Source: a virus
Lineage: Duplodnaviria; Heunggongvirae; Uroviricota; Caudoviricetes
DNA length: 64,000 nucleotides
Strand: one strand, 5' to 3'
Virus record (IMG/VR): IMGVR_UViG_3300035498_001143
In this document: in pieces, positions 19,441-43,879 of the stretch
How positions within the stretch are numbered: position 1 is the stretch's first letter
Layout of the letters: each line of letters starts with the position of its first letter
Notes under the pieces: model-generated
Told to the model about the DNA's origin: nothing
Seen by the model: the letters and a program-made list of their open reading frames with translations, nothing else
Database searches by the model: none
Program-made: the position numbers and the translations under genes

Positions 19441-20397
19441 TTGATTTTAGAAAATCAAACAGTTGTTATTCAATGGACGGGTCGTAATAGAAAAAAATAT
19501 GAAGAATTAGGCTATGTTTTTACTAAATTTGGAAACCCGTTAGAAATTAAAGTAGAACATTTACATAAAGGTTCTCACGAAGAAGTTTGGTATGAATGTG
19601 ACAATTGTCATAAAAAAGATAAAAGAGAATATAGAAAACTTTTTAAACAAGATATACATTATTGTAAAAAATGTTGTACTATTAGACGAGAAGAAACTTG
19701 TATGAAATTATACGGAGTAAAAAACACATTTCAGAGTGAAGAAAAAAAAGAAAAAATAAAACAAACTTGTATAAAAAAATATGGAGTAGACAGTCCTTTA
19801 AAAAACAAAGAAATACACGACAAAGTAGAAGCAACTTGTATGAAAAAATATGGCGTAAGAAATACTTTTCAAGTAAAAGAGTTTCAAGAAAAAAGTAGAC
19901 AAACAATACTTGAACGATATGGAGAAGATTATTATAAAGAAAAAGCACTTACAATGATAAGAACTTTAAATAATAAAAATAGCTCAACAAGAACATCTAA
20001 TAATCAAGCAAATATTTGTGAATGGACGAATGGTACATTAAACTATAAAATAAGTAGGTATTCTTTGGATATTAGAATAAATGATAAATTATATATTGAA
20101 TACGATGGTTCAGGACATACATTACCTGTCATTTTAAAACAAGTTTCTAAAAAAGTTTTTAAGAAAAAAGAATTATATAGAAATAAATATATGGAAAATT
20201 TAGGATATAAACTTATAAGGGTTATTAATCGTCAAGATATTGATTTAGATAAGGATGAATTTTTAAAGTTATATAATTTCTGCACCGATTATCTTAAAAA
20301 TACAGATTATAAGTGGATAAAGATATATTATGATAAACGACTTGTTATAAGTAATATTTTTAAAAAAACTTTTGATGAGGTGATAAATAATGAGTAA
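19441..20397 (+). CDS. free-standing homing-endonuclease-like protein: zinc ribbon, three ~30-aa KKYGV-N-FQ repeats, C-terminal Vsr/DUF559-like PD-(D/E)XK nuclease domain
   Basis: N-terminal CDNCH...CKKCC. Three repeats of the pattern TC[IM]KKYGV[DRK][NS][PT][FL][QK]. C-terminal LYIEYDGSGH...YMENLGYKLIRV resembles the DUF559/Vsr endonuclease core. The TTG start overlaps the gyrB start. Confidence 0.45.
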   Translation: MILENQTVVIQWTGRNRKKYEELGYVFTKFGNPLEIKVEHLHKGSHEEVWYECDNCHKKDKREYRKLFKQDIHYCKKCCTIRREETCMKLYGVKNTFQSEEKKEKIKQTCIKKYGVDSPLKNKEIHDKVEATCMKKYGVRNTFQVKEFQEKSRQTILERYGEDYYKEKALTMIRTLNNKNSSTRTSNNQANICEWTNGTLNYKISRYSLDIRINDKLYIEYDGSGHTLPVILKQVSKKVFKKKELYRNKYMENLGYKLIRVINRQDIDLDKDEFLKLYNFCTDYLKNTDYKWIKIYYDKRLVISNIFKKTFDEVINNE

Positions 20398-21706
20398 TAA
20401 TTATGATGTTGGGCAAATATCTTCCCTCGAAGGATTAACTTCAATCCGTCTTAAACCATCTATGTATATAGGTTCTACGTCACAAGAAGGTGTAAATCAA
20501 TTAGTTTATGAAGTATGGGATAATGCTCTTGATGAATATGTTGCAGGTTATGGTAATGAAGTAAACGTAGTTATTGATAAAGAAAATTATATATCTATTG
20601 AAGACCACGGTAGAGGTATTCCTGTTGGACCTCATCCAACTTGGAAAAATCCTGATGGTACTCCACAAGATACATTGACAGGTGTCCTGACTCGCATCCA
20701 TGCAGGAAGCAAATTCACCCACGATGGAAATTCAGGGTATTTTTCAGGAATTTCTGGTACGTTCGGGGTTGGAACAAAGTGTAATGTTGCTTTATCTGAT
20801 GATTTTATAGTTAGAGTGAAAAGAAATGGCAACATATATCAACAAACATTTAGTAAAGGTAAACCTACTTCAGAAGTTGAAATTGTTGGGAATGTTGAAA
20901 AAAATGATACAGGTACAACGATTAAATTTCATCCTGACCCTACGATATTTAAAACAACAATTCAGCCAAATGATAGAAAATTACAAAACAGACTTGATGA
21001 AATAACTTCTTTAAATACAGAGTTGAAAATTAATTATAAAAATGAATTGGCTAACGTAGATACAACATTTTATTATCCTAATGGTATAGCTGATTATATA
21101 AATAAAAAGTTATTAAAAGATAAAAAACTTTTATTCGAAGAACCAATTTATTATGCAGGTGAATATACTGATAATGATGAAATTATTAAAGTTGAATTTT
21201 CTTTTATGTATGTTGATGATGTGGAAAGTAATGAAATTATTAAAACATTTGCTAATAATGTATCAACAAAAGAACACGGTACACATTTAGTAGGTTTTAA
21301 AGAGGGTTATAAAGAAGCTATTAATCAATATGCAATAAGTAAAAAATGGATAACCGAACCAATTGAGATTAAATATTTAATGGATAACATTTGTTTAATT
21401 GTATCTGTTAAGTTAAGAGAATGTGAGCTTGACGGACAAACAAAAAATAAATTAGGTAATTTAATAGCTAAAGATGGTGTTGCTAATGTTGTTAAAGAAT
21501 ACTTTAATAAGTTAAGTAAAGAACAACAAGTAGTAATACAAACAATAGTTGAAAGAGCTAATAAAGTAAAAGAAGCAGAAGAAGCTGCAAGGAGAGCAAG
21601 AATAAATACAAGGACTGCTAATAAAATAAAGAAGATAGCATTACCTGGCAAACTTGCTGATTGTAGTAGTAATAAAGGATATAGTGAATTATTCTTAGTT
21701 GAAGGA
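20390..21706 (+). CDS. gyrB: DNA gyrase/topo II subunit B, exon 1 (GHKL ATPase, transducer, start of toprim up to ELFLVEG)
   Basis: GHKL ATPase motifs (EVWDNALDE, DHGRGIP, GTFGVGTK) then LADCSSNKGYSELFLVEG; the frame stops 2 codons later. Confidence 0.85.
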
Positions 21707-22091
21707 GTAGCCTAAAGGCAGAAACTCCCTATTAAGTAGTAATATTTAATAGAAAATTTCTTTAATTGCTGGAAGTTCCTAAAATTAATTATACTATTAA
21801 AATGTTTAATAGTTGCGAAAGTAGAAAAAAATAATTAAACGATATATGGTGATAGTAAACCTAAGTATTATAAGAAATAATAATTTCTAAAAATGGATAA
21901 TCAGCAACAAAATATATAAATAAAAAATATATATGTTCAACGACTATGCTTTAAAAGCAGTAGGATAAAAGTTTATCCGAAATGGGAAAATACTTAATGT
22001 TTAAGTATATGATATAGTCTATGCACTAATGAAAGTTAGTGAAAAACTAAATGTTTTTATTATAGTTTAACAAACTATGGTTAATGTAATT
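21707..22091 (+). ncRNA. ORF-less group I intron (subgroup IA-like) in gyrB
   Basis: P AATTGCTGGAAG (21763-21774) and Q AATCAGCAAC (21900-21909) form a 7-bp P4. R GTTCAACGACTATGC and S ATGATATAGTCTATGC form P7. A CTCC internal guide 18-21 nt into the intron pairs with exon GGAG. The intron ends in G. Excision restores EG|DSAGG in frame. Confidence 0.7.
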
Positions 22092-22160
22092 AGATTCTGC
22101 TGGTGGTTCTGCAAAGAACGCAAGATATAGAGAATTTCAAGCTATATTGCCATTAAGAGG
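22092..22160 (+). CDS. gyrB: gyrB exon 2 (24-aa micro-exon with toprim DSAGGSAK...LPLRGK)
   Basis: Encodes [23 protein letters not shown](K), the universally conserved toprim DxD/acidic segment of GyrB. Confidence 0.75.
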
Positions 22161-22471
22161 TAAAGGATTTGCCTCTACATTTCTAACTGTTTAATATAAC
22201 AGGGTATGCTTAAAAACGATTTAAATGCGTTTTGAAGCTTGCTAACGAGGAAAGCTTAACATTATACATATAAGTCAAAATATGTTCAGGTGAAGTCAAT
22301 CTCGTGCGAAATATAGCGATTTAATAATTGCTGTTCGTGTATCGACTATCCTAAGTTAGATTAGGAGTACAGGTTTTATAAAACTTGGAAATGGAATGAC
22401 CGTTTTAAAAAGTTTGACAAACTTATAGGTTAAGAAATAGTCAGTGCTATTAGAAATAATAGATTATAATG
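22161..22471 (+). ncRNA. second intervening sequence in gyrB, probably a self-splicing intron of uncertain class
   Basis: 311 nt with stops in all frames. The upstream exon ends in U and the element ends in G, as expected for group I. GACTA (22349-22353) and TAGTC (22436-22440) could form P7, but no clear P/Q. Excision joins RGK|ILNTEKA in frame. Confidence 0.45.
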
Positions 22472-23026
22472 AAAATCCTTAATACTGAAAAAGCCAGTTT
22501 TGAAAAAGCATTAAATTCAGATGTTATTAAATCATTTATTGCTGCAATAGGAACAGGTATAGGTAAGAATTTTAATATAGATAAATGTAGATATGATAAA
22601 ATAATTATGATGACTGATGCGGACGTTGACGGTTATCATATCTCAAACTTAATTTTAACTTTTATATATAATTATATGAGACCTTTAATTGAAAATGGTT
22701 ATATATATTTAACAGTACCACCTCTTTATAAGGTTATTACCAAAAAGGAAAGTCTTTATATAAGAGATGATATTGAATTAAAAGAATATAAAAAGAAACA
22801 CCCAAGAGAAAATTTAGAAGTACAAAGATTTAAGGGATTAGGAGAAATGGATTACGAAGAACTCAAAGTCACTACAATGGACCCAGCAACAAGAGTGTTA
22901 GAAAAGATTGCTATTGATGATGTTGAAGAAATGGTAGAAGCATTTAATGTATGTATGGGAAGTAATGTAGAGATAAGAAGAAAATTCATTGAAGAAAACG
23001 CTCAGTCAGTAAATTTAGATAATTAA
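22472..23026 (+). CDS. gyrB: gyrB exon 3 (rest of toprim and C-terminal tail)
   Basis: ILNTEKA...IGTGIGKNFN...IIMMTDADVDGYHI...PPLYKV are canonical GyrB toprim motifs. Confidence 0.85.
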   Translation, partial: KILNTEKASFEKALNSDVIKSFIAAIGTGIGKNFNIDKCRYDKIIMMTDADVDGYHISNLILTFIYNYMRPLIENGYIYLTVPPLYKVITKKESLYIRDDIELKEYKKKHPRENLEVQRFKGLGEMDYEELKVTTMDPATRVLEKIAIDDVEEMVEAFNVCMGSNVEIRRKFIEENAQSVNLDN

Positions 23027-33918: not shown

Positions 33919-35129
33919 ATGAAAAAAATTAAATTAACTGCAAATATTCTTTTTAGTGGTATTGGCTGTCAAGAATATGGATGGAGAAAGAGTAATTTAT
34001 TTGATATAGAAGTATTAAATACTTCTGATATATACAAAGAAGCTGTATTATCTTATGCTGCTATACATTGTGATATGACTAATGAAATGGTAGATAGTTA
34101 TGATTATCCAACAAAAGAAGAAATGATTGAACATTTAACTAAAATAAATTTAGGATATGATGCAGATAAAAATAAACCATTTAATTGGAATAAGGTAAAA
34201 GATAATGATTTAAAGAAATATTACCTTGCTTGTAAATTAACAAATAATTTAGGTGATATTTCAAAAATTGAAGATTTACCTTATGCTGATTTTTGGACTA
34301 TTTCTTTTCCTTGTCAATCAATTTCAATATGTGGAAAATTAAAAGGTTTTACAGAGGGTTCTAATACAAGAAGTAGTTTATTATGGGAAAATATAAGATT
34401 ATTAAAAATTGCTAAAGAAAAGAATAAAACACCTAAGTATCTTATGTTCGAAAACGTAAAAAATTTACTTAGTAAAAGGTTTGAAAATGATTTTAAAGAT
34501 TTAGTTGATATATTAGACGATTTAGGTTTTAATATTTATTATAACGTATTAAATTCTAAATGTTGTGGAGTACCACAAAATAGAGAAAGAGTTTTTGTTA
34601 TTTGTATTAGAAAAGATACTGATACTAATTTATTTACTTTTCCAAAACCATTTGATAATGGAATGAGATTAAAAGATATTTTGGAAGATGAAGTTGATGA
34701 AAAATATTACATAAGTGAAGCAGCACAGAAAAAATTAAAATTTATAACTACTAATAGTAAAAACGATACTTTCCAATTAAAACAAATTGCTCAAATGTAT
34801 GGTACAGATAAAGAACCTAATCCTCAGGCAGGTAGAGTTTATAGTGAAGATTATATTTGCCCTACTTTAGATACTTGTAGCGGGGGAATAGAATGCCAAA
34901 AGTGTATAGAGAACCAAGAGTAAGAAAACTTACACCAAGAGAATGCTTTGCATTACAAGGTTTTACTTTTGAAGATTGTAATAAAGCAATAGATATAGGT
35001 GTTGCTGATTCTCATTTATACAAACAAGCAGGTAATGGTATTACGACTAATTGTTGTGCATTGTTAGCAGAACATTTATATAAAGCTCAATATAATAACT
35101 TTTACATTTGTAGTGATGAAAAATATTAA
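33919..35129 (+). CDS. C5-cytosine DNA methyltransferase interrupted by a frameshift at a G5 run (34882-34886)
   Basis: Motif I FSGIGC, IV FPCQ, VI ENV in the frame ending at 34923. Motif IX RKLTPRECFALQGF and X GNG are in the frame opening at 34881. One extra G would fuse them. Confidence 0.6.
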
Positions 35130-35858: not shown

Positions 35859-36487
35859 GTGCTGATTTTAATAAAGCAGCAAGATTATTCTTGGTATATT
35901 GGGATAATGTTTTAGTTGCATTATGTTCTATGTTACCTAATCCAAGTGGTACAGTAAAACACGGTTTTAGATGCCATAGATTGGTTGTCTTACCTGATTA
36001 TCAAGGTTTAGGTTTTGGTACTAAAATAACAGAATATATTGCTGATATTTATTTAAAAGAGGGTAAAAGGTTTTATTTTAGAACAACTCATAAGAAATTA
36101 CTTAATCATATGGATAGTAGCGATTTATGGGTTGGTACAAGTCATAATAATAAACCACAAACTACTGATATTCAAGGTAGAGAATTAAAAACTAAGAAAA
36201 GAATTTGTGGTAGTTATGAATATGTAGGTAATGATTATATTTCTAAACCACACAAAGAAATTGTTATTGACGAAATAAATGATTTAAATAAATTAAAAAA
36301 TTATTTAATAAGTTTACAAAAACAATATTATGTAATTATTATTCACGGTAAGTCTGAATGTGATGATGAAATCGATATACTTTGTCAAAAATTAGCTATA
36401 AGAACAAAAACTTTATATATAAAGAAAAAAGATACATACACTAAGAAAAAAATTCCTAAGAATGTAGAAATTTATAAGGAGAATTGA
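35789..36487 (+). CDS. GNAT-like acetyltransferase domain in the -1 frame relative to the ABC ATPase; probably its C-terminal extension via frameshift
   Basis: GNAT motif A RLVVLPDYQGLGFGTKI. The -1 frame is open from just after the A7 run at 35780-35786, with no independent RBS. Confidence 0.4.
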   Translation: MTLQVYESTDKDIWRVFRKHHYLSADFNKAARLFLVYWDNVLVALCSMLPNPSGTVKHGFRCHRLVVLPDYQGLGFGTKITEYIADIYLKEGKRFYFRTTHKKLLNHMDSSDLWVGTSHNNKPQTTDIQGRELKTKKRICGSYEYVGNDYISKPHKEIVIDEINDLNKLKNYLISLQKQYYVIIIHGKSECDDEIDILCQKLAIRTKTLYIKKKDTYTKKKIPKNVEIYKEN

Positions 36488-37317
36488 TTATGTATGAACC
36501 TGTTATAAAATGGTCGGGTAGTAAAAGAAGTCAAGCAGAAGAAATACTAAAGTATTTTCCTAAAGAAATAGATACATATTATGAACCATTCTGCGGTGGA
36601 GCTTCTATGTTGAGAAGATTATTAGATGCAGATATAAAGGTAAATAAATATGTTTGTAGTGATTTAAATAAAGATTTAATAGATTTATTTAATTTAATAA
36701 AAACTCAACCATATCAAGTATCTGAACATTATAGAGAGTTATGGAATAAATTAAATATTGACGATGATAAGAAAAGAAAAAAGAATTTCTTTAATGAAAT
36801 AAGAGATAAATTAAATAAAGAACACAATCCATTAGATTTTATGTTTATTATGAGAACTACAACAAATGGTATGCCAAGATATAATGCAAAGGGTGAATTT
36901 AATAATTCTTTTCATATAACAAGAGATGGTATAAATCCTGATACATTAAAAAATATTATTTATGAGTGGAGTAATTTATTAAATGATAATAATGTTGAAT
37001 TTATAAATTGTTCTTATGAAAAAGTAAAACCTAATAAAAATGATTTTCTTTATTTAGACCCACCATATTATAATACTAAAGGTATGTATTATGGAAGAAT
37101 TGATTATGATGAATTTTTTGATTATTTAAGAAATATACCTTGTAATTATATATTAAGTTTTGATGGTATAAGCGGAGATAAAAACAATACAGCAAATATA
37201 CCTAACGATATATATACTAAACACGAATATATAAAAAGCGGTAATTCTTCATTTAAAAGAATTATTGGTAATTCAAAAGATAGTATTGTTTATGAGAGTA
37301 TTTACATAAAGGAATGA
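36484..37317 (+). CDS. Dam-like (D12-class) N6-adenine DNA methyltransferase
   Basis: WSGSKRS...YYEPFCGGAS and DPPY. Confidence 0.75.
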   Translation: MIMYEPVIKWSGSKRSQAEEILKYFPKEIDTYYEPFCGGASMLRRLLDADIKVNKYVCSDLNKDLIDLFNLIKTQPYQVSEHYRELWNKLNIDDDKKRKKNFFNEIRDKLNKEHNPLDFMFIMRTTTNGMPRYNAKGEFNNSFHITRDGINPDTLKNIIYEWSNLLNDNNVEFINCSYEKVKPNKNDFLYLDPPYYNTKGMYYGRIDYDEFFDYLRNIPCNYILSFDGISGDKNNTANIPNDIYTKHEYIKSGNSSFKRIIGNSKDSIVYESIYIKE

Positions 37318-37536: not shown

Positions 37537-37565
37537 TTGACGAATAATAAAAATTGTGGTATAAT
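37537..37565 (+). promoter_or_regulatory. sigma70 promoter TTGACG-17-TGnTATAAT
   Basis: Near consensus. Confidence 0.55.
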
Positions 37566-37598
37566 ATAAACAAAAAATATTTAAAAGGAGGAGAAAAG

Positions 37599-38156
37599 TT
37601 GAAAGATTTTACATTTGATTATTGGAGAGATAGTCTTGATAGTAATAAATTGTTTCTTGATGAGGGATATTGCATTTCAAATAATTGGGAAGATTATACT
37701 TATATTCCTTATTCTTTGAGAGAATTATCAGGTGAAGTTTTTAATGAAAAATTATATAATGCAAAAAAGAATAATTCTAAGAAAACTTCTAAGAATAAAA
37801 TAATAGATAACGACTTAAAGAAAAATCTTATTACAAAATTAGTATGTACTAATGAAAAAAGAGTAAGAAATATTATCGGTGGATTAACAATCGGACAAGA
37901 TGTTAATTTTGAATATACTAAAAAAGGAGTAAGTTGTTTTGTTGATAAATTAGAGTACCATAAATCAAAAAGAAATATTATTGTAGATAAAAAACATTTC
38001 ATAGGTCATATTCCTTTTTCAAAAACTTCTTTAATAAAAAATAACAAAAGTAATATTAGAAGTATAGAGATTTTTGATATAAAAGAAAAGTATAAAAATC
38101 AAAAAGCAATAATAATTAAAATAGAATTTTTAGAAGGAGTAAAAATAGATGGCTAA
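37599..38156 (+). CDS. hypothetical basic protein
   Basis: TTG after RBS aaaggagg. Confidence 0.4.
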   Translation: MKDFTFDYWRDSLDSNKLFLDEGYCISNNWEDYTYIPYSLRELSGEVFNEKLYNAKKNNSKKTSKNKIIDNDLKKNLITKLVCTNEKRVRNIIGGLTIGQDVNFEYTKKGVSCFVDKLEYHKSKRNIIVDKKHFIGHIPFSKTSLIKNNKSNIRSIEIFDIKEKYKNQKAIIIKIEFLEGVKIDG

Positions 38157-38504
38157 GAAGAAAGAAAAAAAAGTCGATATTGATAAGATGTTAGCCAATG
38201 AGGTAGTTTATGACGTACCTATAGCAAAAACAATAAGAAACTCAACATTGAATTATGCTATGTCAGTTATTACAGATAGAGCCTTACCTGATGTAAGAGA
38301 TGGTTGTAAACCAATACAAAGAAAAGTCTTGTATGCAACTTATGTAAAAAAAATATTTCCTAATTCAAAGTTTACAAAAAATGCTGAAATCGTAGGTGAA
38401 GTAATAGGTAAATACAGTCCTCACGGTGATACGAGTACTTATGGAGCTTTAGTAAATTTGGCTCAACCTTGGAACACAAAATATCCATTAATTGATTTTC
38501 ACGG
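38149..38504 (+). CDS. gyrA: DNA gyrase/topo II subunit A, exon 1 (through the HPHGD-region up to LIDFHG)
   Basis: ...GCKPIQRKVLYA...KYSPHGDTSTYGALVNLAQPW..., the GyrA N-terminal motifs. The frame stops 3 codons after the junction. Confidence 0.8.
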
Positions 38505-38890
38505 TAGACAATGATTTTTAATAAAAGATATAATTATATCTTGAAAAATTTGACTTAGTTAAAAATTATGCCGTTCTAAGTGAAACTGTCAGGTAGCTTA
38601 GAACTATGAGTGCGAAATGAAGCTGGGAGGGTTTAGTCATCCTAATCAGAAATTTTGAAGGCTATATTTAAAAGTATAGTCAAAGGCAACGCATAGAGAA
38701 TGAACCTTAAATGCGAGTTTAAGAATATAATTTCTCCAAGAGGTCGCACTAACGGACAGTACAATAACAGAGCTTATTCGTGTTAAAAAGTTATGCTATA
38801 CTGAATATGAATTGACATATTGATGAAAATGAGAGAAATCTCCAGAGATATAGATAAAAAACTATATGATAAAAACAATTAGAACTCAGG
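38505..38890 (+). ncRNA. intervening sequence in gyrA, probably a self-splicing intron (boundary +/- 1 nt)
   Basis: 386 nt with stops in all frames. Contains group-I-like pieces (AATCAGAAA, TATAGTC, GGCTATA) but in a non-canonical order. It ends in G, and excision restores ...LIDFHG|NFDGDQYAAYRYTEGRL in frame. Confidence 0.45.
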
Positions 38891-40925
38891 AAATTTTGAT
38901 GGAGACCAATATGCTGCTTATAGATATACAGAAGGCAGATTACATAAAAATGCAATGGAATTATTAAGTGGTCTTGAAGAAAAATGTGTTCCATTTCACC
39001 CCAATTTTAGTGAAACAACAGAAGAACCAGAAGTATTACCTGGTTTATTGCCTAATTTGCTTGTAAACGGCTCATACGGCATTGCAGTTGGCTATACAAC
39101 CAATTTCCCCTCACACAACCTTTCAGAGGTTATAGACGGTATTATAAAGGTTATACAGAACCCTGATGCTACATTAAAAGATATAATGAAATATATAAAA
39201 GCACCTGATTTTCCTTTAGGTAGTCTTTTGGTAGATGATGGTAATATTGAAAAATTATATACAGAAGGTAAAGCAAGTTTAACATTCTTATCTAAGTATA
39301 CTATTGAGGAAAATTCTGAAAATAAGAATCCTCAAATAATTTTTCACGAAATACCACCTACTGTTAATAAACCTAAACTTGTTGAAAAAATATACGAAGT
39401 CTGTATAGATAAAAAACAAGTACCAAGGGTTGTTGATATAAGGGATGAATCAAATGGTGAAGCAGGTATTAGAATTGTAGTTGAATTACATAAAACAGCA
39501 ATAGTAGATATTGTTTTATCTGAATTGTTTAAAAGAACAGATTTAAAGAAATCTAATTCATATATTTTAAGATGTATTGATGATAAAATTCCAAAGGTTT
39601 TATCTTTAAAAGAAATAATTGAAAAGTACATTGAATTTCATAAGGAAGTATATATTAGTAAATATACTAATATGTTAGCCAAAGTAAATAAAAAACTTCA
39701 TATTCAAGAGGGCTATAAAAAGATTTTAACTAATATTGATAAAGCAATTGATATTATTAGAAAATCTGATGATGATAAGGTTGCTAAAGCTAAATTAAAA
39801 GACGAATTTGATTTAACAGATGAGCAGGCAGAAGTAATTCTTGATATGAAATTAAGAAATATTACTAAGTTAGCTTCTAAAGATATTGATACGACTATTC
39901 AAGAGTATAAAGATAAAATTGCTACTTATACAGATATTATTTCAAATGATGATTCTTTAAATAATGTTTTAATAAACGATTTGAAAGATTTGAAAAAACG
40001 TCTTGGCGATAGTAGAAAAACTGAAATAGTCCATGATGTTGCTACTCAAATAGTTCAGAGTGTTGAAAAAGATGTAATGTTAGTCTTAACTAATAAGAAT
40101 AATATCAAACATTATGAAGTAGATACTTATGAAGAAATGATAGCGAAAGGCTATAAGGAGAAATCTGAAATATTCTTACAGTCTGTTAAAATAAATACTA
40201 ATGATAAAGTATTATTGATTTTAAATAATTGTAAATATATTTGTTTAGAATTTAATGATTTATTAGGTAATATAAGTTCATTAATAGATAAGCAGGCAAT
40301 TAAAACTATTATTCCTTTAACAGAAAACAATATGAAGAAAGTTATCTTTGTTATGACGAAAAAAGGGTTAATTAAAAAATGCTTTGTTGAAAAGATTAAA
40401 TATAAGAAGAAATTAGCTCCTCTTATGGAAATTGATGAAGAAGATAATGTAATAAAGGTTGATTTAATAGATAATAATGAAAATAATGTTATTACTGTTG
40501 CTTCACAAGATGGTTTAATACATAGATTCTTTGTTAATTCATTTAAAGAAACATCAGCAGGCGGTAAAGGATTAAGTAGTATGTCATTACAAGATAGTAA
40601 TATAGTTGATTTTATTATTTCTGATAAAAGTAATGATGAGAATAATCAATTAATTATTTATGCTATAAATGAAAATAATTATATGATTAAGAAAATACCT
40701 TTAAAGGAATTTTTAGTCAAGGGTAGAATAGCAAAAGGTGTTAAATCTATAAACTTTACTACAAAAAGTCCTGGCGAGATATATAAAATATTTATTACTG
40801 ATAAAGATTTTTCAATTATAAACAACAAGGGCATATTACAAGAAATAAAATTAGATAGTATAAAAGAAAGCACTAAAGCAACCAAGGGTGAAAATATAGA
40901 TTACGATGTTTTATATATAAAATAA
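38891..40925 (+). CDS. gyrA: gyrA exon 2 (active-site Tyr region, tower, C-terminal domain)
   Basis: NFDGD...RYTE..L...PNLLVNGSYGIAVGYTTNFPSHNL matches the GyrA/ParC breakage-reunion domain. The frame is open from 38892. Confidence 0.8.
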
Positions 40926-40931
40926 TTATTA

Positions 40932-40967
40932 AAGGCTCACAAATTAAGATTTTGTGAGTCTTTTTTT
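40932..40967 (+). terminator. rho-independent terminator
   Basis: aaaggctcacaaa...tttgtgagtcttt plus T7. Confidence 0.6.
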
Positions 40968-41004
40968 ATATATAAAATATAAAAAGAAAGGACTGTATAT
41001 AAAA

Positions 41005-41505
41005 ATGATTATAAATAGAGTATGGTCAATGCCTAACAGTAACACTTTTTCAATAAAGCCTATCAAAGAAATTATAAATAAATACGCTTTTGGTAAAATT
41101 ATAGACCCTTTTGCTAATGATAGTAAAATTGCAACTATTACTAATGATTTAGATATATCTCACGATACTGATTATCATTTAGATGCTACTGATTTTTTAA
41201 AGATGTTTGAAGACAATTCTATTGATACTGTTTTATATGACCCACCTTATTCTCCACGTCAAGTTTCTGAATGTTATAAGAAGTTAGGACAAACAGTAAA
41301 TATGCAAACAACACAAGCTTCTTACTGGTCACTTCAAAAAGAGCAAATAGGAAGAATTGTAAAACAAAATGGTATAGTGATAACTTGTTGTTGGAACTCA
41401 GGCGGTATTGGTAAAAAATATGGTTTTGAAATAGAAGAAATATTGTTAGTACCACATGGCGGTTGGCATAATGATACTATTGTAACAGTAGAAAGAAAAA
41501 AGTAG
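41005..41505 (+). CDS. small DPPY-motif DNA (adenine) methyltransferase
   Basis: LYDPPYSPRQ catalytic motif in a 166-aa protein; the ORF-track start is moved to the ATG with RBS after the terminator. Confidence 0.55.
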   Translation: MIINRVWSMPNSNTFSIKPIKEIINKYAFGKIIDPFANDSKIATITNDLDISHDTDYHLDATDFLKMFEDNSIDTVLYDPPYSPRQVSECYKKLGQTVNMQTTQASYWSLQKEQIGRIVKQNGIVITCCWNSGGIGKKYGFEIEEILLVPHGGWHNDTIVTVERKK

Positions 41506-41514
41506 GTGTAATAT

Positions 41515-42099
41515 GTGGCTAAGATAGAAAATGATAAGTATTATACACCTGATGATTTAGCAAAATACTGTGTAGAAAAAGCAAATGAAATAATAGGTGT
41601 TGATAATATAATTAGTTATATAGAACCATCAGCAGGAGCAGGGGCGTTTATTAAATATTTTAATAAAGATTATTTAGCAATAGATATTCTTCCTGAACAC
41701 GAAAGAGTCATTGAACAAGATTTTTTGACTTTAAATCTTTCTTACAAGAAAGGTAGAATGATAATAGGCAATCCACCGTATGGTAGAAATATGTCTTTAG
41801 CTCAAAAATTCTATAAGAAATCAATAGAGCTTGCAGATTATATAGCTTTTATATTGCCTATTTCACAATTAAATAATACTAATTCTTTATATGAATTTGA
41901 TTTAATATATAGTGAGGACTTGGGAATAAGAACATATTCAAATATTGATTTACATTGTTGCTTTAATATTTACAAAAGACCTGAAAACGGGTTAAATAAA
42001 AAGGAAAGTATTAAATTAAAAGATATAACTATTTATAGACAAGATAAAAAAGGTTATGATAATTTAGATTTTGATATAAGAATGTGCTACTGGGGGTAA
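41515..42099 (+). CDS. N6-adenine DNA methyltransferase, gamma-like (NPPY)
   Basis: YYTP...EPSAGAGAF (SAM) then IIGNPPYGR (catalytic). Confidence 0.7.
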   Translation: MAKIENDKYYTPDDLAKYCVEKANEIIGVDNIISYIEPSAGAGAFIKYFNKDYLAIDILPEHERVIEQDFLTLNLSYKKGRMIIGNPPYGRNMSLAQKFYKKSIELADYIAFILPISQLNNTNSLYEFDLIYSEDLGIRTYSNIDLHCCFNIYKRPENGLNKKESIKLKDITIYRQDKKGYDNLDFDIRMCYWG

Positions 42100-43024: not shown

Positions 43025-43879
43025 ATGAATAATTTAATTCCACCTTGTTCTTATCAAGGCGGCAAACAAAGACTTGCAAAACAAATTGTAGATATTATAT
43101 ATAAAGAAAATAATATTGATGAAAATACAAAATTTTTTGATATTTGTTGTGGTAGCGGAGCTGTTAGTTTAGAGTTAATAAATAATAACTTTAATTCTAA
43201 TAACATTACAATGATTGATATAAATATTTTTGGACTTTTCTATGAATATGTTTCTAAAAATAAATTTGATTTAAATATTTTTAAAGAAGAAATAGATAAA
43301 TTACCTGATAAAGAATACATACAACTTTATTTAAAACAATTAAGTGATTTACCTATTGATGAAGAAAAATTAGTATATCAATATTTATTGTTGCAGGCAG
43401 GTAGTTTTGGAAGTAAACAAATTTATATAAAAGATAATAAATGGAAGAATAACACGTTTAGAAATTATTGGCAACCTACTAAGAGTAGTAATAGAAAAAG
43501 TCCTGTCAATCCCATGATGCCGATGCCTGATACGTTATTTGAAAGAGTAGAAAATATTGTAAATAAATTAAGTGGTAAGATTGTTGCATACAATGATGAT
43601 ATTTTTAATATATTAAATATTTTTTCCAATTTAGATAATAATGTTATTATTTACATTGACCCACCGTACTCAAACACGACAAAATATAAAGATAGTTTTG
43701 ATGTTTATGAATTGATTGATAAGTTAAAAAACATAAATGATTTTACTATTTATATATCAGAAGGCGTTGAATTGAACAATGCTAAAAACACATATTTACT
43801 TTCAAGAGGTAGAACTAAAGGTAATATTAGTGGTAATGTAACTAAAAAGCCTGTTGAAGAATGGTTAAATAAATTCTGA
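43025..43879 (+). CDS. Dam-like (D12-class) N6-adenine DNA methyltransferase
   Basis: YQGGKQRLAK...CCGSGAV and IYIDPPY. Confidence 0.7.
   Translation: MNNLIPPCSYQGGKQRLAKQIVDIIYKENNIDENTKFFDICCGSGAVSLELINNNFNSNNITMIDINIFGLFYEYVSKNKFDLNIFKEEIDKLPDKEYIQLYLKQLSDLPIDEEKLVYQYLLLQAGSFGSKQIYIKDNKWKNNTFRNYWQPTKSSNRKSPVNPMMPMPDTLFERVENIVNKLSGKIVAYNDDIFNILNIFSNLDNNVIIYIDPPYSNTTKYKDSFDVYELIDKLKNINDFTIYISEGVELNNAKNTYLLSRGRTKGNISGNVTKKPVEEWLNKF

Follow-up and report, generated by a model that had tools for sequence, protein, structure and literature searches.

A predicted ORF-less group I intron of subgroup-IA-like architecture in a phage gyrA gene

The gyrA gene (DNA gyrase/topoisomerase subunit A) in the window (the whole 64,000-nucleotide stretch of DNA analyzed here, from a giant phage) is split by a 377-nt insert at positions 38506 to 38882, which is very probably a self-splicing group I intron with subgroup-IA-like features and without an ORF. 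The interruption of the gene is genuine, and the insert is homologous to other phage introns, has a covarying fold and defined boundaries, and has lost its ORF; from these features we infer that the RNA is spliced in this phage. Sequence comparison points to an intron of a known type, homologous to the published gyrA introns of phage AR9, and in this sense it is real but ordinary.

Interruption of gyrA and boundaries of the insert

The first-pass annotation, made from the sequence alone, had described a GyrA frame running through KYSPHGD...LIDFHG into a stop, and the ORF list bears this out, with the exon 1 frame (ORF 38149..38514, plus strand), which encodes the start of a GyrA/ParC-type protein, reading ...GKYSPHGD...LIDFHG and terminating thereafter. 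The downstream gyrA ORF is called from an ATG at 38955, but its frame is actually open from 38883, with NSGNFDGDQYAAYRYTEGRLHKNA preceding that ATG. No in-frame ATG, GTG or TTG occurs between 38883 and 38954, making Met144 (ATG 38955) the earliest possible start, which comes after the catalytic-tyrosine segment AAYRYTE (Tyr134). Because no start codon precedes ATG 38955, translation of the Tyr134/RYTE segment requires that the two pieces be brought together in the RNA. Stop-codon recoding or read-through of the insert is ruled out by its 14 in-frame stops, among which all three stop types are represented.

The annotation should merge both gyrA ORFs at 38505/38883 (here and below, slashes in junctions mark the point of ligation) to give a single 799-aa GyrA, in which the intron sits in phase 0 between Gly119 and Asn120, 15 codons ahead of the catalytic Tyr134. 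The Pfam domain DNA_topoisoIV (PF00521) covers residues 44 to 487 of this spliced protein without a break (profile positions 1 to 432 of 432, E 2.4e-124). The spliced GyrA also aligns without a gap, and with identical spacing, to the proteins of AR9, BpSp and the uninterrupted locus L134, and to E. coli GyrA from GKYxPHGD to PxHNLxEV.

Jumbo phages often have split genes, and the two pieces of gyrA could be separately translated polypeptides with an intergenic spacer between them, in the manner of T4 gp39/gp52/gp60 or of the RNA polymerase subunits of jumbo phages; the annotators of PBS1, Goe21, BpSp and phiR1-37 did list their gyrA pieces as separate CDSs. We consider separate cistrons highly unlikely here, because the second piece lacks a suitable start codon and the spacer between the pieces resembles a ribozyme. 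A separate second piece would start at Met144 and so lose Tyr134 together with the conserved NSGNFDGDQYAAYRYTE segment, and yet this segment remains in frame right up to the last base of the intron, while the spacer itself is a conserved, covarying RNA with group I topology. The AR9 homolog, moreover, is annotated as spliced, its gyrA (g044) record being a three-exon join, and its protein is reproduced exactly by the junction rules that we apply below. Korn et al. described AR9 gyrA as disrupted by two introns and reported that mature AR9 mRNAs had been determined experimentally. The earlier preference for an intron over two polypeptides thus stands, on the strength of the missing start codon, the covarying RNA and the AR9 homologs annotated as spliced.

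We place the intron at 38506 to 38882 because the window aligns base for base with the junctions of AR9 gyrA intron 2, giving ...CACGGU / AGACAAUG ... ACAAUUAG / AAC UCA GGA AAU UUU... in the window. Exon 2 of AR9 gyrA ends in ...LIDAHG (...CAUGGU) and its second intron in ...AUUAG, after which AAC UUU GGA... (NFGSVYGDPAAAERYSE) follows. In addition to AR9 homology and the gap-free GyrA alignment, the 38505/38883 junction is fixed by the distance from P9.2 to the terminal G, which lies 14 to 15 nt past P9.2 in nearly all family members, and by the P9.0 pairing. In P9.0, bases 3 and 4 of J7/9 pair with the two bases before the terminal G in 21/21 members, through nine dinucleotide combinations; the pairing holds in 13/13 members whose junction is defined by the host protein, compared to 0 to 8 of 13 for alternative registers. 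Within the window it picks G38882 and rejects G38889 and G38890. Positions 38880 to 38882 read as an in-frame TAG, so the downstream frame opens at 38883. When the same junction rules (exon end GGU; intron end at the G 15 nt after P9.2) were applied to both AR9 introns, they returned an 809-aa protein identical to the deposited AMS01129.1 / YP_009282949.1.

These boundaries revise those drawn in the first-pass annotation, where an insert of ~386 nt was placed at 38505 to 38890 and the exons were joined at 38504/38891. The interruption is real and that join is indeed in phase, but the coordinates and the length were off, and the join would drop three residues (NSG) beside the active site, the frame opening at 38883 as NSG NFDGDQ..., three codons ahead of the NFDGDQ at which it had been taken to resume. 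The spliced RNA is predicted to carry the junction CACGGU/AACUCAGG, that is, ...GAUUUUCACGGU/AACUCAGGAAAUUUUGAU..., and a peptide of the joined GyrA that crosses the junction would span ...LIDFHGNSGNFDGDQYAAYR, or YPLIDFHGNSGNFDGDQYAAYR in the case of a tryptic peptide. No convincing P10 emerged when the 3' exon was compared by eye with the nucleotides that precede the guide sequence.

Table 1. Coordinates of the gyrA exons, the predicted intron and its structural elements in the window
Feature	Position	Strand	Description
gyrA exon 1	38149..38505	+	Met1-Gly119, end ...LIDFHG; U38505 is the 5' splice-site U; from the ORF list and spliced translation
Group I intron (predicted)	38506..38882	+	377 nt, no ORF; begins AGACAAUG..., ends ...ACAAUUAG; terminal G at 38882
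gyrA exon 2	38883..40925	+	Asn120 to stop; starts NSGNFDGDQYAAYRYTE...; catalytic Tyr134 at 38925-38927
P1 5' strand (exon ACGGU)	38501..38505	+	Pairs with GCCGU 38570-38574; wobble U38505-G38570 at the cleavage site
Internal guide sequence GCCGU (P1 3' strand)	38570..38574	+	
P1 extension	38511..38569	+	P1a 38511-22/38558-69, 12 bp; P1b hairpin 38525-32/38535-42
LAGLIDADG ORF 3' remnant	38534..38574	+	Frame 1 reads LYLEKFDLVKNYAVL...; the L076 ORF ends QLYLERKFDLVKNYAVLNETTN and a stop
P2 hairpin	38575..38602	+	UCUAAG/CUUAGA; 94% paired, 6/6 pairs covary
P3 5' strand	38610..38615	+	GUGCGA; partner UCGCAC 38744-38749
P4	38623..38649	+	CUGG 38623-26/UCAG 38646-49; 100% paired, 3/4 pairs covary; P-like and Q-like elements
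P5	38629-32/38639-42, inside P4	+	GGGU/AUCC; 71% paired
P6	38654..38685	+	38654-56/38683-85; 98% paired
P6a hairpin	38660-66/38675-81	+	GGCUAUA/UAUAGUC; 90% paired, 7/7 pairs covary
P7 5' strand	38691..38695	+	GCAUA; partner UAUGC 38792-38796; pseudoknot with P3; presumed guanosine-binding helix
Extra arm P7-P3'	38696..38736	+	P7.1 GAGAA/UUCUC 38696-700/38732-36; P7.1a CUUAAA/UUUAAG 38706-11/38718-23
P3 3' strand	38744..38749	+	UCGCAC
P8	38750..38785	+	UAAC + GGA 38750-56/UUC 38777-79 + GUUA 38782-85
P7 3' strand	38792..38796	+	UAUGC; preceded by A-rich J8/7 AAAAAGU, 38785-91
P9.0 5' strand	38799..38800	+	UA in J7/9; partner U38880-A38881, directly before the terminal G
P9	38804-09/38816-21 (P9 to P9.2, 38804..38867)	+	Covariation at 5/6 pairs
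P9.1	38831-42	+	GAGA-GAAA-UCUC
P9.2	38848-53/38862-67	+	Covariation at 5/6 pairs
P9.0 3' strand and terminal guanosine G38882	38880..38882	+	UA + G; in-frame TAG

Fold and class of the insert

The fold summarized in Table 1 was derived by eye and tested on a MAFFT alignment of 21 nonredundant family members, with P7 written as a pseudoknot with P3. Standard pairs fill 91.0% of the 1483 cells, as opposed to 70.7 ± 0.8% in shuffles (0/500 of which reach the observed value) and 31 to 47% when partners are slid by 1 to 3 columns, a control that is tilted in favor of the fold since the fold was taken from the very sequences tested. Double-sided changes occur at 64 of the 94 pairs (covariation score, 0.415 versus 0.133). 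The best-supported helices are the long-range ones: P3 is 96.8% paired with covariation at 6/6 pairs, and P7 is 100% paired, with compensatory changes at 2 pairs and the remainder near-invariant. Pairing reaches 90 to 100% for P2, P4, P6, P6a, P7.1, P9, P9.1 and P9.2, and 99 to 100% for the last three of these, with the conservation of P9.1 inflated by ascertainment because it served as the search motif. The extra arm between P7 and P3' is 90 to 95% paired and also covaries. Weaker values for P5, P8 and P1b (63 to 72.5%) reflect, at least in part, misalignment of variable regions by MAFFT; P8, which lies in such a badly aligned region, is 72.5% paired and covaries at 7/7 pairs.

In the window copy, none of the core helices is disrupted. 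A single-sequence thermodynamic fold recovers P1a, P1b, P2, P4/P5, P6a, P9, P9.1 and P9.2, with P3 appearing in the centroid, and is moderately better than that of shuffles (z = -2.16). The pairing of the exon with the internal guide sequence in P1 is preserved in AR9 introns 1 and 2 and in the locus L045, and covariation links the opening position of the guide to the final position of the exon, as in ACGGG/CCCGU in L016 (G-C) and ACGGU/ACCGU in L043 (U-A).

[quoted passage not shown] P1 would form in the folded pre-mRNA between ACGGU at the end of the exon and the internal guide GCCGU, with the U38505-G38570 wobble at the splice site, and an exogenous guanosine bound in P7 would attack after U38505. 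The terminal G38882, helped by P9.0 (38799-800 with 38880-81), would then dock into the same site, allowing the freed 3'-OH of exon 1 to attack after G38882. Ligation would yield ...CACGGU/AACUCAGGA... and with it the full-length GyrA.

Elements resembling P, Q, R and S stand in canonical order (AAGCUGGGAGGG, CCUAAUCAGA, GCAACGCAUAGA at 38687-98 and AAAAAGUUAUGCUA at 38786-99), with R and S variant in their P7 part; the P/Q/R/S consensus was supplemented by the canonical gyrB intron at 21938-22020 of the window. In introns of subgroup IA, the extra helices lie between P7 and P3', and the insert carries additional helices, P7.1 and P7.1a, at this position. Such extra helices define subgroup IA in a review of the class, and by the checklist that we took from a review, the helix order from P1 to P9.2 together with the P3/P7 pseudoknot constitutes a group I core. 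Further group I marks are the exon-guide P1 with U opposite G, the terminal G with P9.0, and the P3/P7 plus P4-P6 core. The first-pass annotation had left the intron class open because R and S were misassigned in it. Its AAUCAG "Q" is indeed the J5/4-P4' element, but the GGCUAUA and UAUAGUC that it offered as R and S pair with each other to form the P6a hairpin, and the noncanonical order that it saw disappears once the real R-like and S-like elements are recognized. The canonical topology with its covariation, together with the subgroup-IA-like arm, settles the class as group I.

That the insert is a group II intron, or is bypassed in translation like the 50-nt gap of T4 gene 60, is extremely improbable. 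AR9-like phages also bear group II introns, and the junction first proposed for the window runs from one Gly codon to another, superficially like gene 60, whose take-off and landing sites are GGA. Against this, the Rfam group II domains have no match in the window or the insert, the boundaries are AGACA...UUAG and not GUGYG...AY, and the covarying fold displays the group I P3/P7 pseudoknot, U-G splice-site pair, terminal G and P9.0. A bypassing ribosome would have to cross a gap of 377 nt containing the stops described above, from a take-off codon that is not followed by a stop, and the hop would remove three residues from a stretch of conserved length. We reject group II and bypass because their signatures are absent and group I features are present.

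Covariance-model scans, which the first-pass annotation had proposed as a check on its reading, left the gyrA insert unmatched by both the group I model RF00028 and the group II models, and they picked up the gyrB insertions as sub-threshold group I. RF00028 had no match at its gathering score in the window, none at E ≤ 10 on 38350-39050, and none on the AR9 and Goe21 loci or 16 further family loci at E ≤ 5; a scan of the whole window against Rfam at E ≤ 0.05 likewise did not find the gyrA intron. Because these relatives go unmatched while the gyrB insertions of the same window, which serve as a positive control, are detected below threshold, the family lies outside the reach of RF00028. We take the miss as a limit of the model and not as evidence against the fold, and as outweighed by the structure and the AR9 precedent.

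The gyrB gene (20390..23026) is split as well, as had been claimed for it, apparently by two insertions, whose sub-threshold matches to RF00028 score 30.3 bits (E 1e-5) and 18.9 bits. An nhmmer search with the family profile found no second family copy in the window, which assigns the gyrB introns to different lineages of group I.

Relatives, selection and loss of the endonuclease

Four IMG/VR contigs, one of them 379 kb in length, carry the same intron-containing gyrA. The window differs from them at 28 positions in 1152 nt (97.6% identity), yet GyrA does not differ over its first 380 residues. Eight of the substitutions lie within the intron, all four of those in helices keep pairing, and position 38580/38597 of P2 shows a double change from G-C to C-G. 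Because the GyrA residues are identical and the helix changes preserve pairing, this comparison argues that both the gene and the intron fold are under continuing selection and that the intron is not dead. The intron is present in 4/4 of the near-identical contigs, with no intron-less allele among these close relatives. In a comparison with relatives lacking the insert, another check named in the first-pass annotation, L134 aligns without a gap; relatives uninterrupted at this site, L134 included, are all distant (~36% identity).

These data also bear on whether the insert might be a decayed intron that splices inefficiently, leaving gyrA a pseudogene or dependent on help in trans, for instance from a maturase. 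The intron has lost its endonuclease/maturase ORF, its RNA is very AT-rich (30% GC), and the single-sequence fold improves on shuffles by the modest z score given above. We nevertheless judge decay to be unlikely, given the intact core helices of the window copy, the identity of GyrA and the compensatory helix changes among the close relatives, and the fact that the ORF-less copies in AR9 are annotated as spliced.

The self-splicing intron that we favor contains no homing-endonuclease ORF: its three forward frames are full of stops, and no plus-strand ORF of ≥40 aa lies inside it. A remnant of such a gene persists, however, as a stretch corresponding to the ~20 last codons of the ORF, and the same sequence supplies P1b and P1a with their 3' strands. 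An endonuclease-bearing version is present in the metagenomic contig L076 (IMGVR_UViG_3300037400_003528), which is interrupted at the same gyrA codon boundary (LIDWHG / NNGNITGDGPAAARYTE) and matches the window at 300 of 374 aligned positions of the ribozyme core (80% identity). The L076 intron measures 1190 nt and holds a LAGLIDADG_3 ORF (Pfam) in its P1b loop, so that the window copy is short of ~810 nt. An ORF occupies the same P1b loop in phiR1-37 (g328), and the ORFs at that place in L043, L016, L093 and L116 have LAGLIDADG-like motifs. The window intron is thus an endonuclease-deleted derivative, and its ancestor was in all likelihood a mobile intron whose P1b loop encoded a LAGLIDADG homing endonuclease, as at the same site in L076. 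With the endonuclease gene deleted, the window copy is probably immobile on its own, unless an endonuclease acts in trans. Its position beside the catalytic residues of an essential DNA-metabolism gene is behavior expected of selfish introns, and the copy here has been caught after endonuclease loss.

The family to which the insert belongs is large. By blastn, identity of the insert is ~69% with the gyrA introns in the Bacillus jumbo phages AR9, PBS1, Goe21 and BpSp and ~71% with that in Yersinia phage phiR1-37. A motif taken from the intron's 3' portion occurs in at least 120 IMG/VR viral contigs (single motif search), and the nhmmer family profile gave 156 matches among the collected loci. 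Three Gly-codon sites are used within gyrA, namely IG/xYHPHGD (AR9 intron 1, BpSp and phiR1-37), HPHG/D (L043 and L016) and HG/N (the window, L076 and AR9 intron 2), and these span ~80 codons in different phages. Other interrupted genes include a helicase at its Walker A motif (L042), tape-measure genes, a major tail gene, a terminase and the helicase of a crAss-like phage. Among members with a readable 5' exon, insertion is nearly always after GGU. The short conserved guide (GCC plus G) may let the family colonize many ...GGU sites, and the pattern of insertion sites could reflect ectopic spread via reverse splicing as well as endonuclease homing. Genes split by this family, which escapes the Rfam group I model, are routinely annotated as fragments, and a family-specific covariance model would mend many such annotations.

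Comparison with known systems

The gyrA insert shares with the gene 60 bypass and the split topoisomerase of T4 the interruption of a type II topoisomerase subunit gene in a large phage. The likeness ends there, since T4 uses a 50-nt hop or separate cistrons while the window has a 377-nt structured, ribozyme-like RNA with splice-site signatures, and the mechanisms would be unrelated.

Classical IA2 introns (T4 td/nrdB/sunY, Twort orf142 and the SPO1 DNA polymerase intron), for which the comparison draws in part on a review, share with the window intron the P1-P9.2 architecture with an arm between P7 and P3', the A-rich J8/7, the ...AACG start of R, the AAGAUAU-like S and the ...AACAnnAUnG 3' tail, and they also sit in DNA-metabolism genes beside the active site and carry ORFs in peripheral loops. 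They differ in that their P7 is usually GACUA/UAGUC as opposed to GCAUA/UAUGC here, that they have two hairpins (P7.1 and P7.2) in place of the single P7.1/P7.1a stack, and that the P1 of the window intron has a long P1a/P1b extension, with ~65 nt before the guide sequence. We tentatively suggest, as a possibility that we hold with considerable doubt, that the intron represents a large and structurally distinct phage group I lineage, marked by the variant P7, the single arm and the long extension that houses LAGLIDADG genes, and invisible to current covariance models. If so, group I introns of phages and metagenomes would be systematically undercounted.

The closest known counterparts are the gyrA (g044) introns of AR9 and PBS1, where intron 2 and its tandem paralog, intron 1, belong to the same RNA family with ~70% core identity. 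[quoted passage not shown] 2016). AR9 intron 2 lies at an identical codon boundary (...HG / N...), lacks an ORF, and shows the same exon GGU, guide GCCGU, P9.0 rule and terminal-G distance. AR9 gyrA has two introns and the window gyrA one, and relative to AR9 the helices P2, P3, P6a, P8, P9 and P9.2 of the window differ through compensatory changes, with the P2 loop and P8 being longer. The host phage differs as well, the window contig having ~26% GC and being related to the 379-kb IMG/VR contig.

Insertion sites and abundance of the intron family

Across the gyrA genes of different phages (AR9, BpSp, phiR1-37, the IMG/VR loci L016, L043 and L076, and the window, at 38506), members of the window's gyrA intron family occupy three different glycine codons that lie within ~80 codons of one another, and AR9 gyrA carries two copies in tandem. 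Where the 5' exon of a member is readable, insertion is nearly always 3' of GGU, a site that fits the conserved guide GCC(G) of the family. The three glycine codons, the AR9 tandem and the match between GGU and guide raise the possibility that, besides endonuclease homing, the family may have spread ectopically by reverse splicing through guide-sequence pairing.

The family is abundant, as a search of IMG/VR with one 26-nt motif returned at least 120 viral contigs; the loci considered were these IMG/VR loci (L010-L129) and L004-L009. The Rfam group I model RF00028 detected none of the members tested. Deposited genome records of several phages (PBS1, Goe21, BpSp, phiR1-37, Staphylococcus phage F1 and Clostridium phage vB_CpeS-1181) list the pieces of the interrupted genes individually, as fragments.

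Further intron-like insertions

The gyrB gene of the window is split by two insertions that flank a micro-exon of 23-24 codons (22094 to 22162/22165, the last K being optional), in which the Toprim motif sits. The first insertion has textbook R and S elements (GUUCAACGACUAU ... GAUAUAGUC); its 5' boundary is only approximate because no join yields an exon-terminal U together with an intron-terminal G. RF00028 scores the two insertions at 30.3 and 18.9 bits, both below its gathering score of 50.

The IMG/VR locus L011 carries a second intron-like sequence ~100 nt upstream of its family member (2383-2674), within a probable tape-measure gene. The pair would represent distinct group I introns lying near each other in a single gene.

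Coordinates of the features discussed (window positions unless stated)
Feature	Position	Strand	Remarks
ORF directly 5' of gyrB	19441-20397	+	Pfam DUF7487, E 4e-20
gyrB, split by two insertions	20390-23026
gyrB first insertion	approx. 21707-22093
gyrB second insertion	approx. 22163-22471
Cytosine-5 DNA methyltransferase, apparently split	33919-35129	+
First ORF	33919..34923	+
Second ORF	34893..35129	+	C-terminal RKLTPRECFALQGF / QAGNG motifs
ORFs with DPPY or NPPY motifs	36484-37317, 40954-41505, 41515-42099, 43025-43879	+
200-aa ORF	37554-38156	+	8-nt overlap with gyrA start; no Pfam match
L011 second intron-like sequence	about 2110-2290 (L011)		canonical group I elements GGUUCAACGACUAGG ... 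GAAGAUAUAGUCUCG ... GGAAAC hairpin

Genes neighboring gyrA and gyrB

The methyltransferase gene cluster around gyrA is unusually dense. At least four flanking ORFs encode a DPPY or NPPY motif, as is characteristic of N6-adenine/N4-cytosine DNA methyltransferases, and a weak Pfam N6-adenineMlase match was obtained for one of these ORFs. The cytosine-5 DNA methyltransferase seemingly consists of two overlapping ORFs in differing frames; a frameshift or a programmed event could explain the split, as could a sequencing error.

The ORF preceding gyrB also weakly matches a treble-clef zinc finger and DUF559 (Vsr-like nuclease), and probably encodes a free-standing homing endonuclease, of the kind that a recent study reports from phage introns (NAR 2025, PMC12350094).
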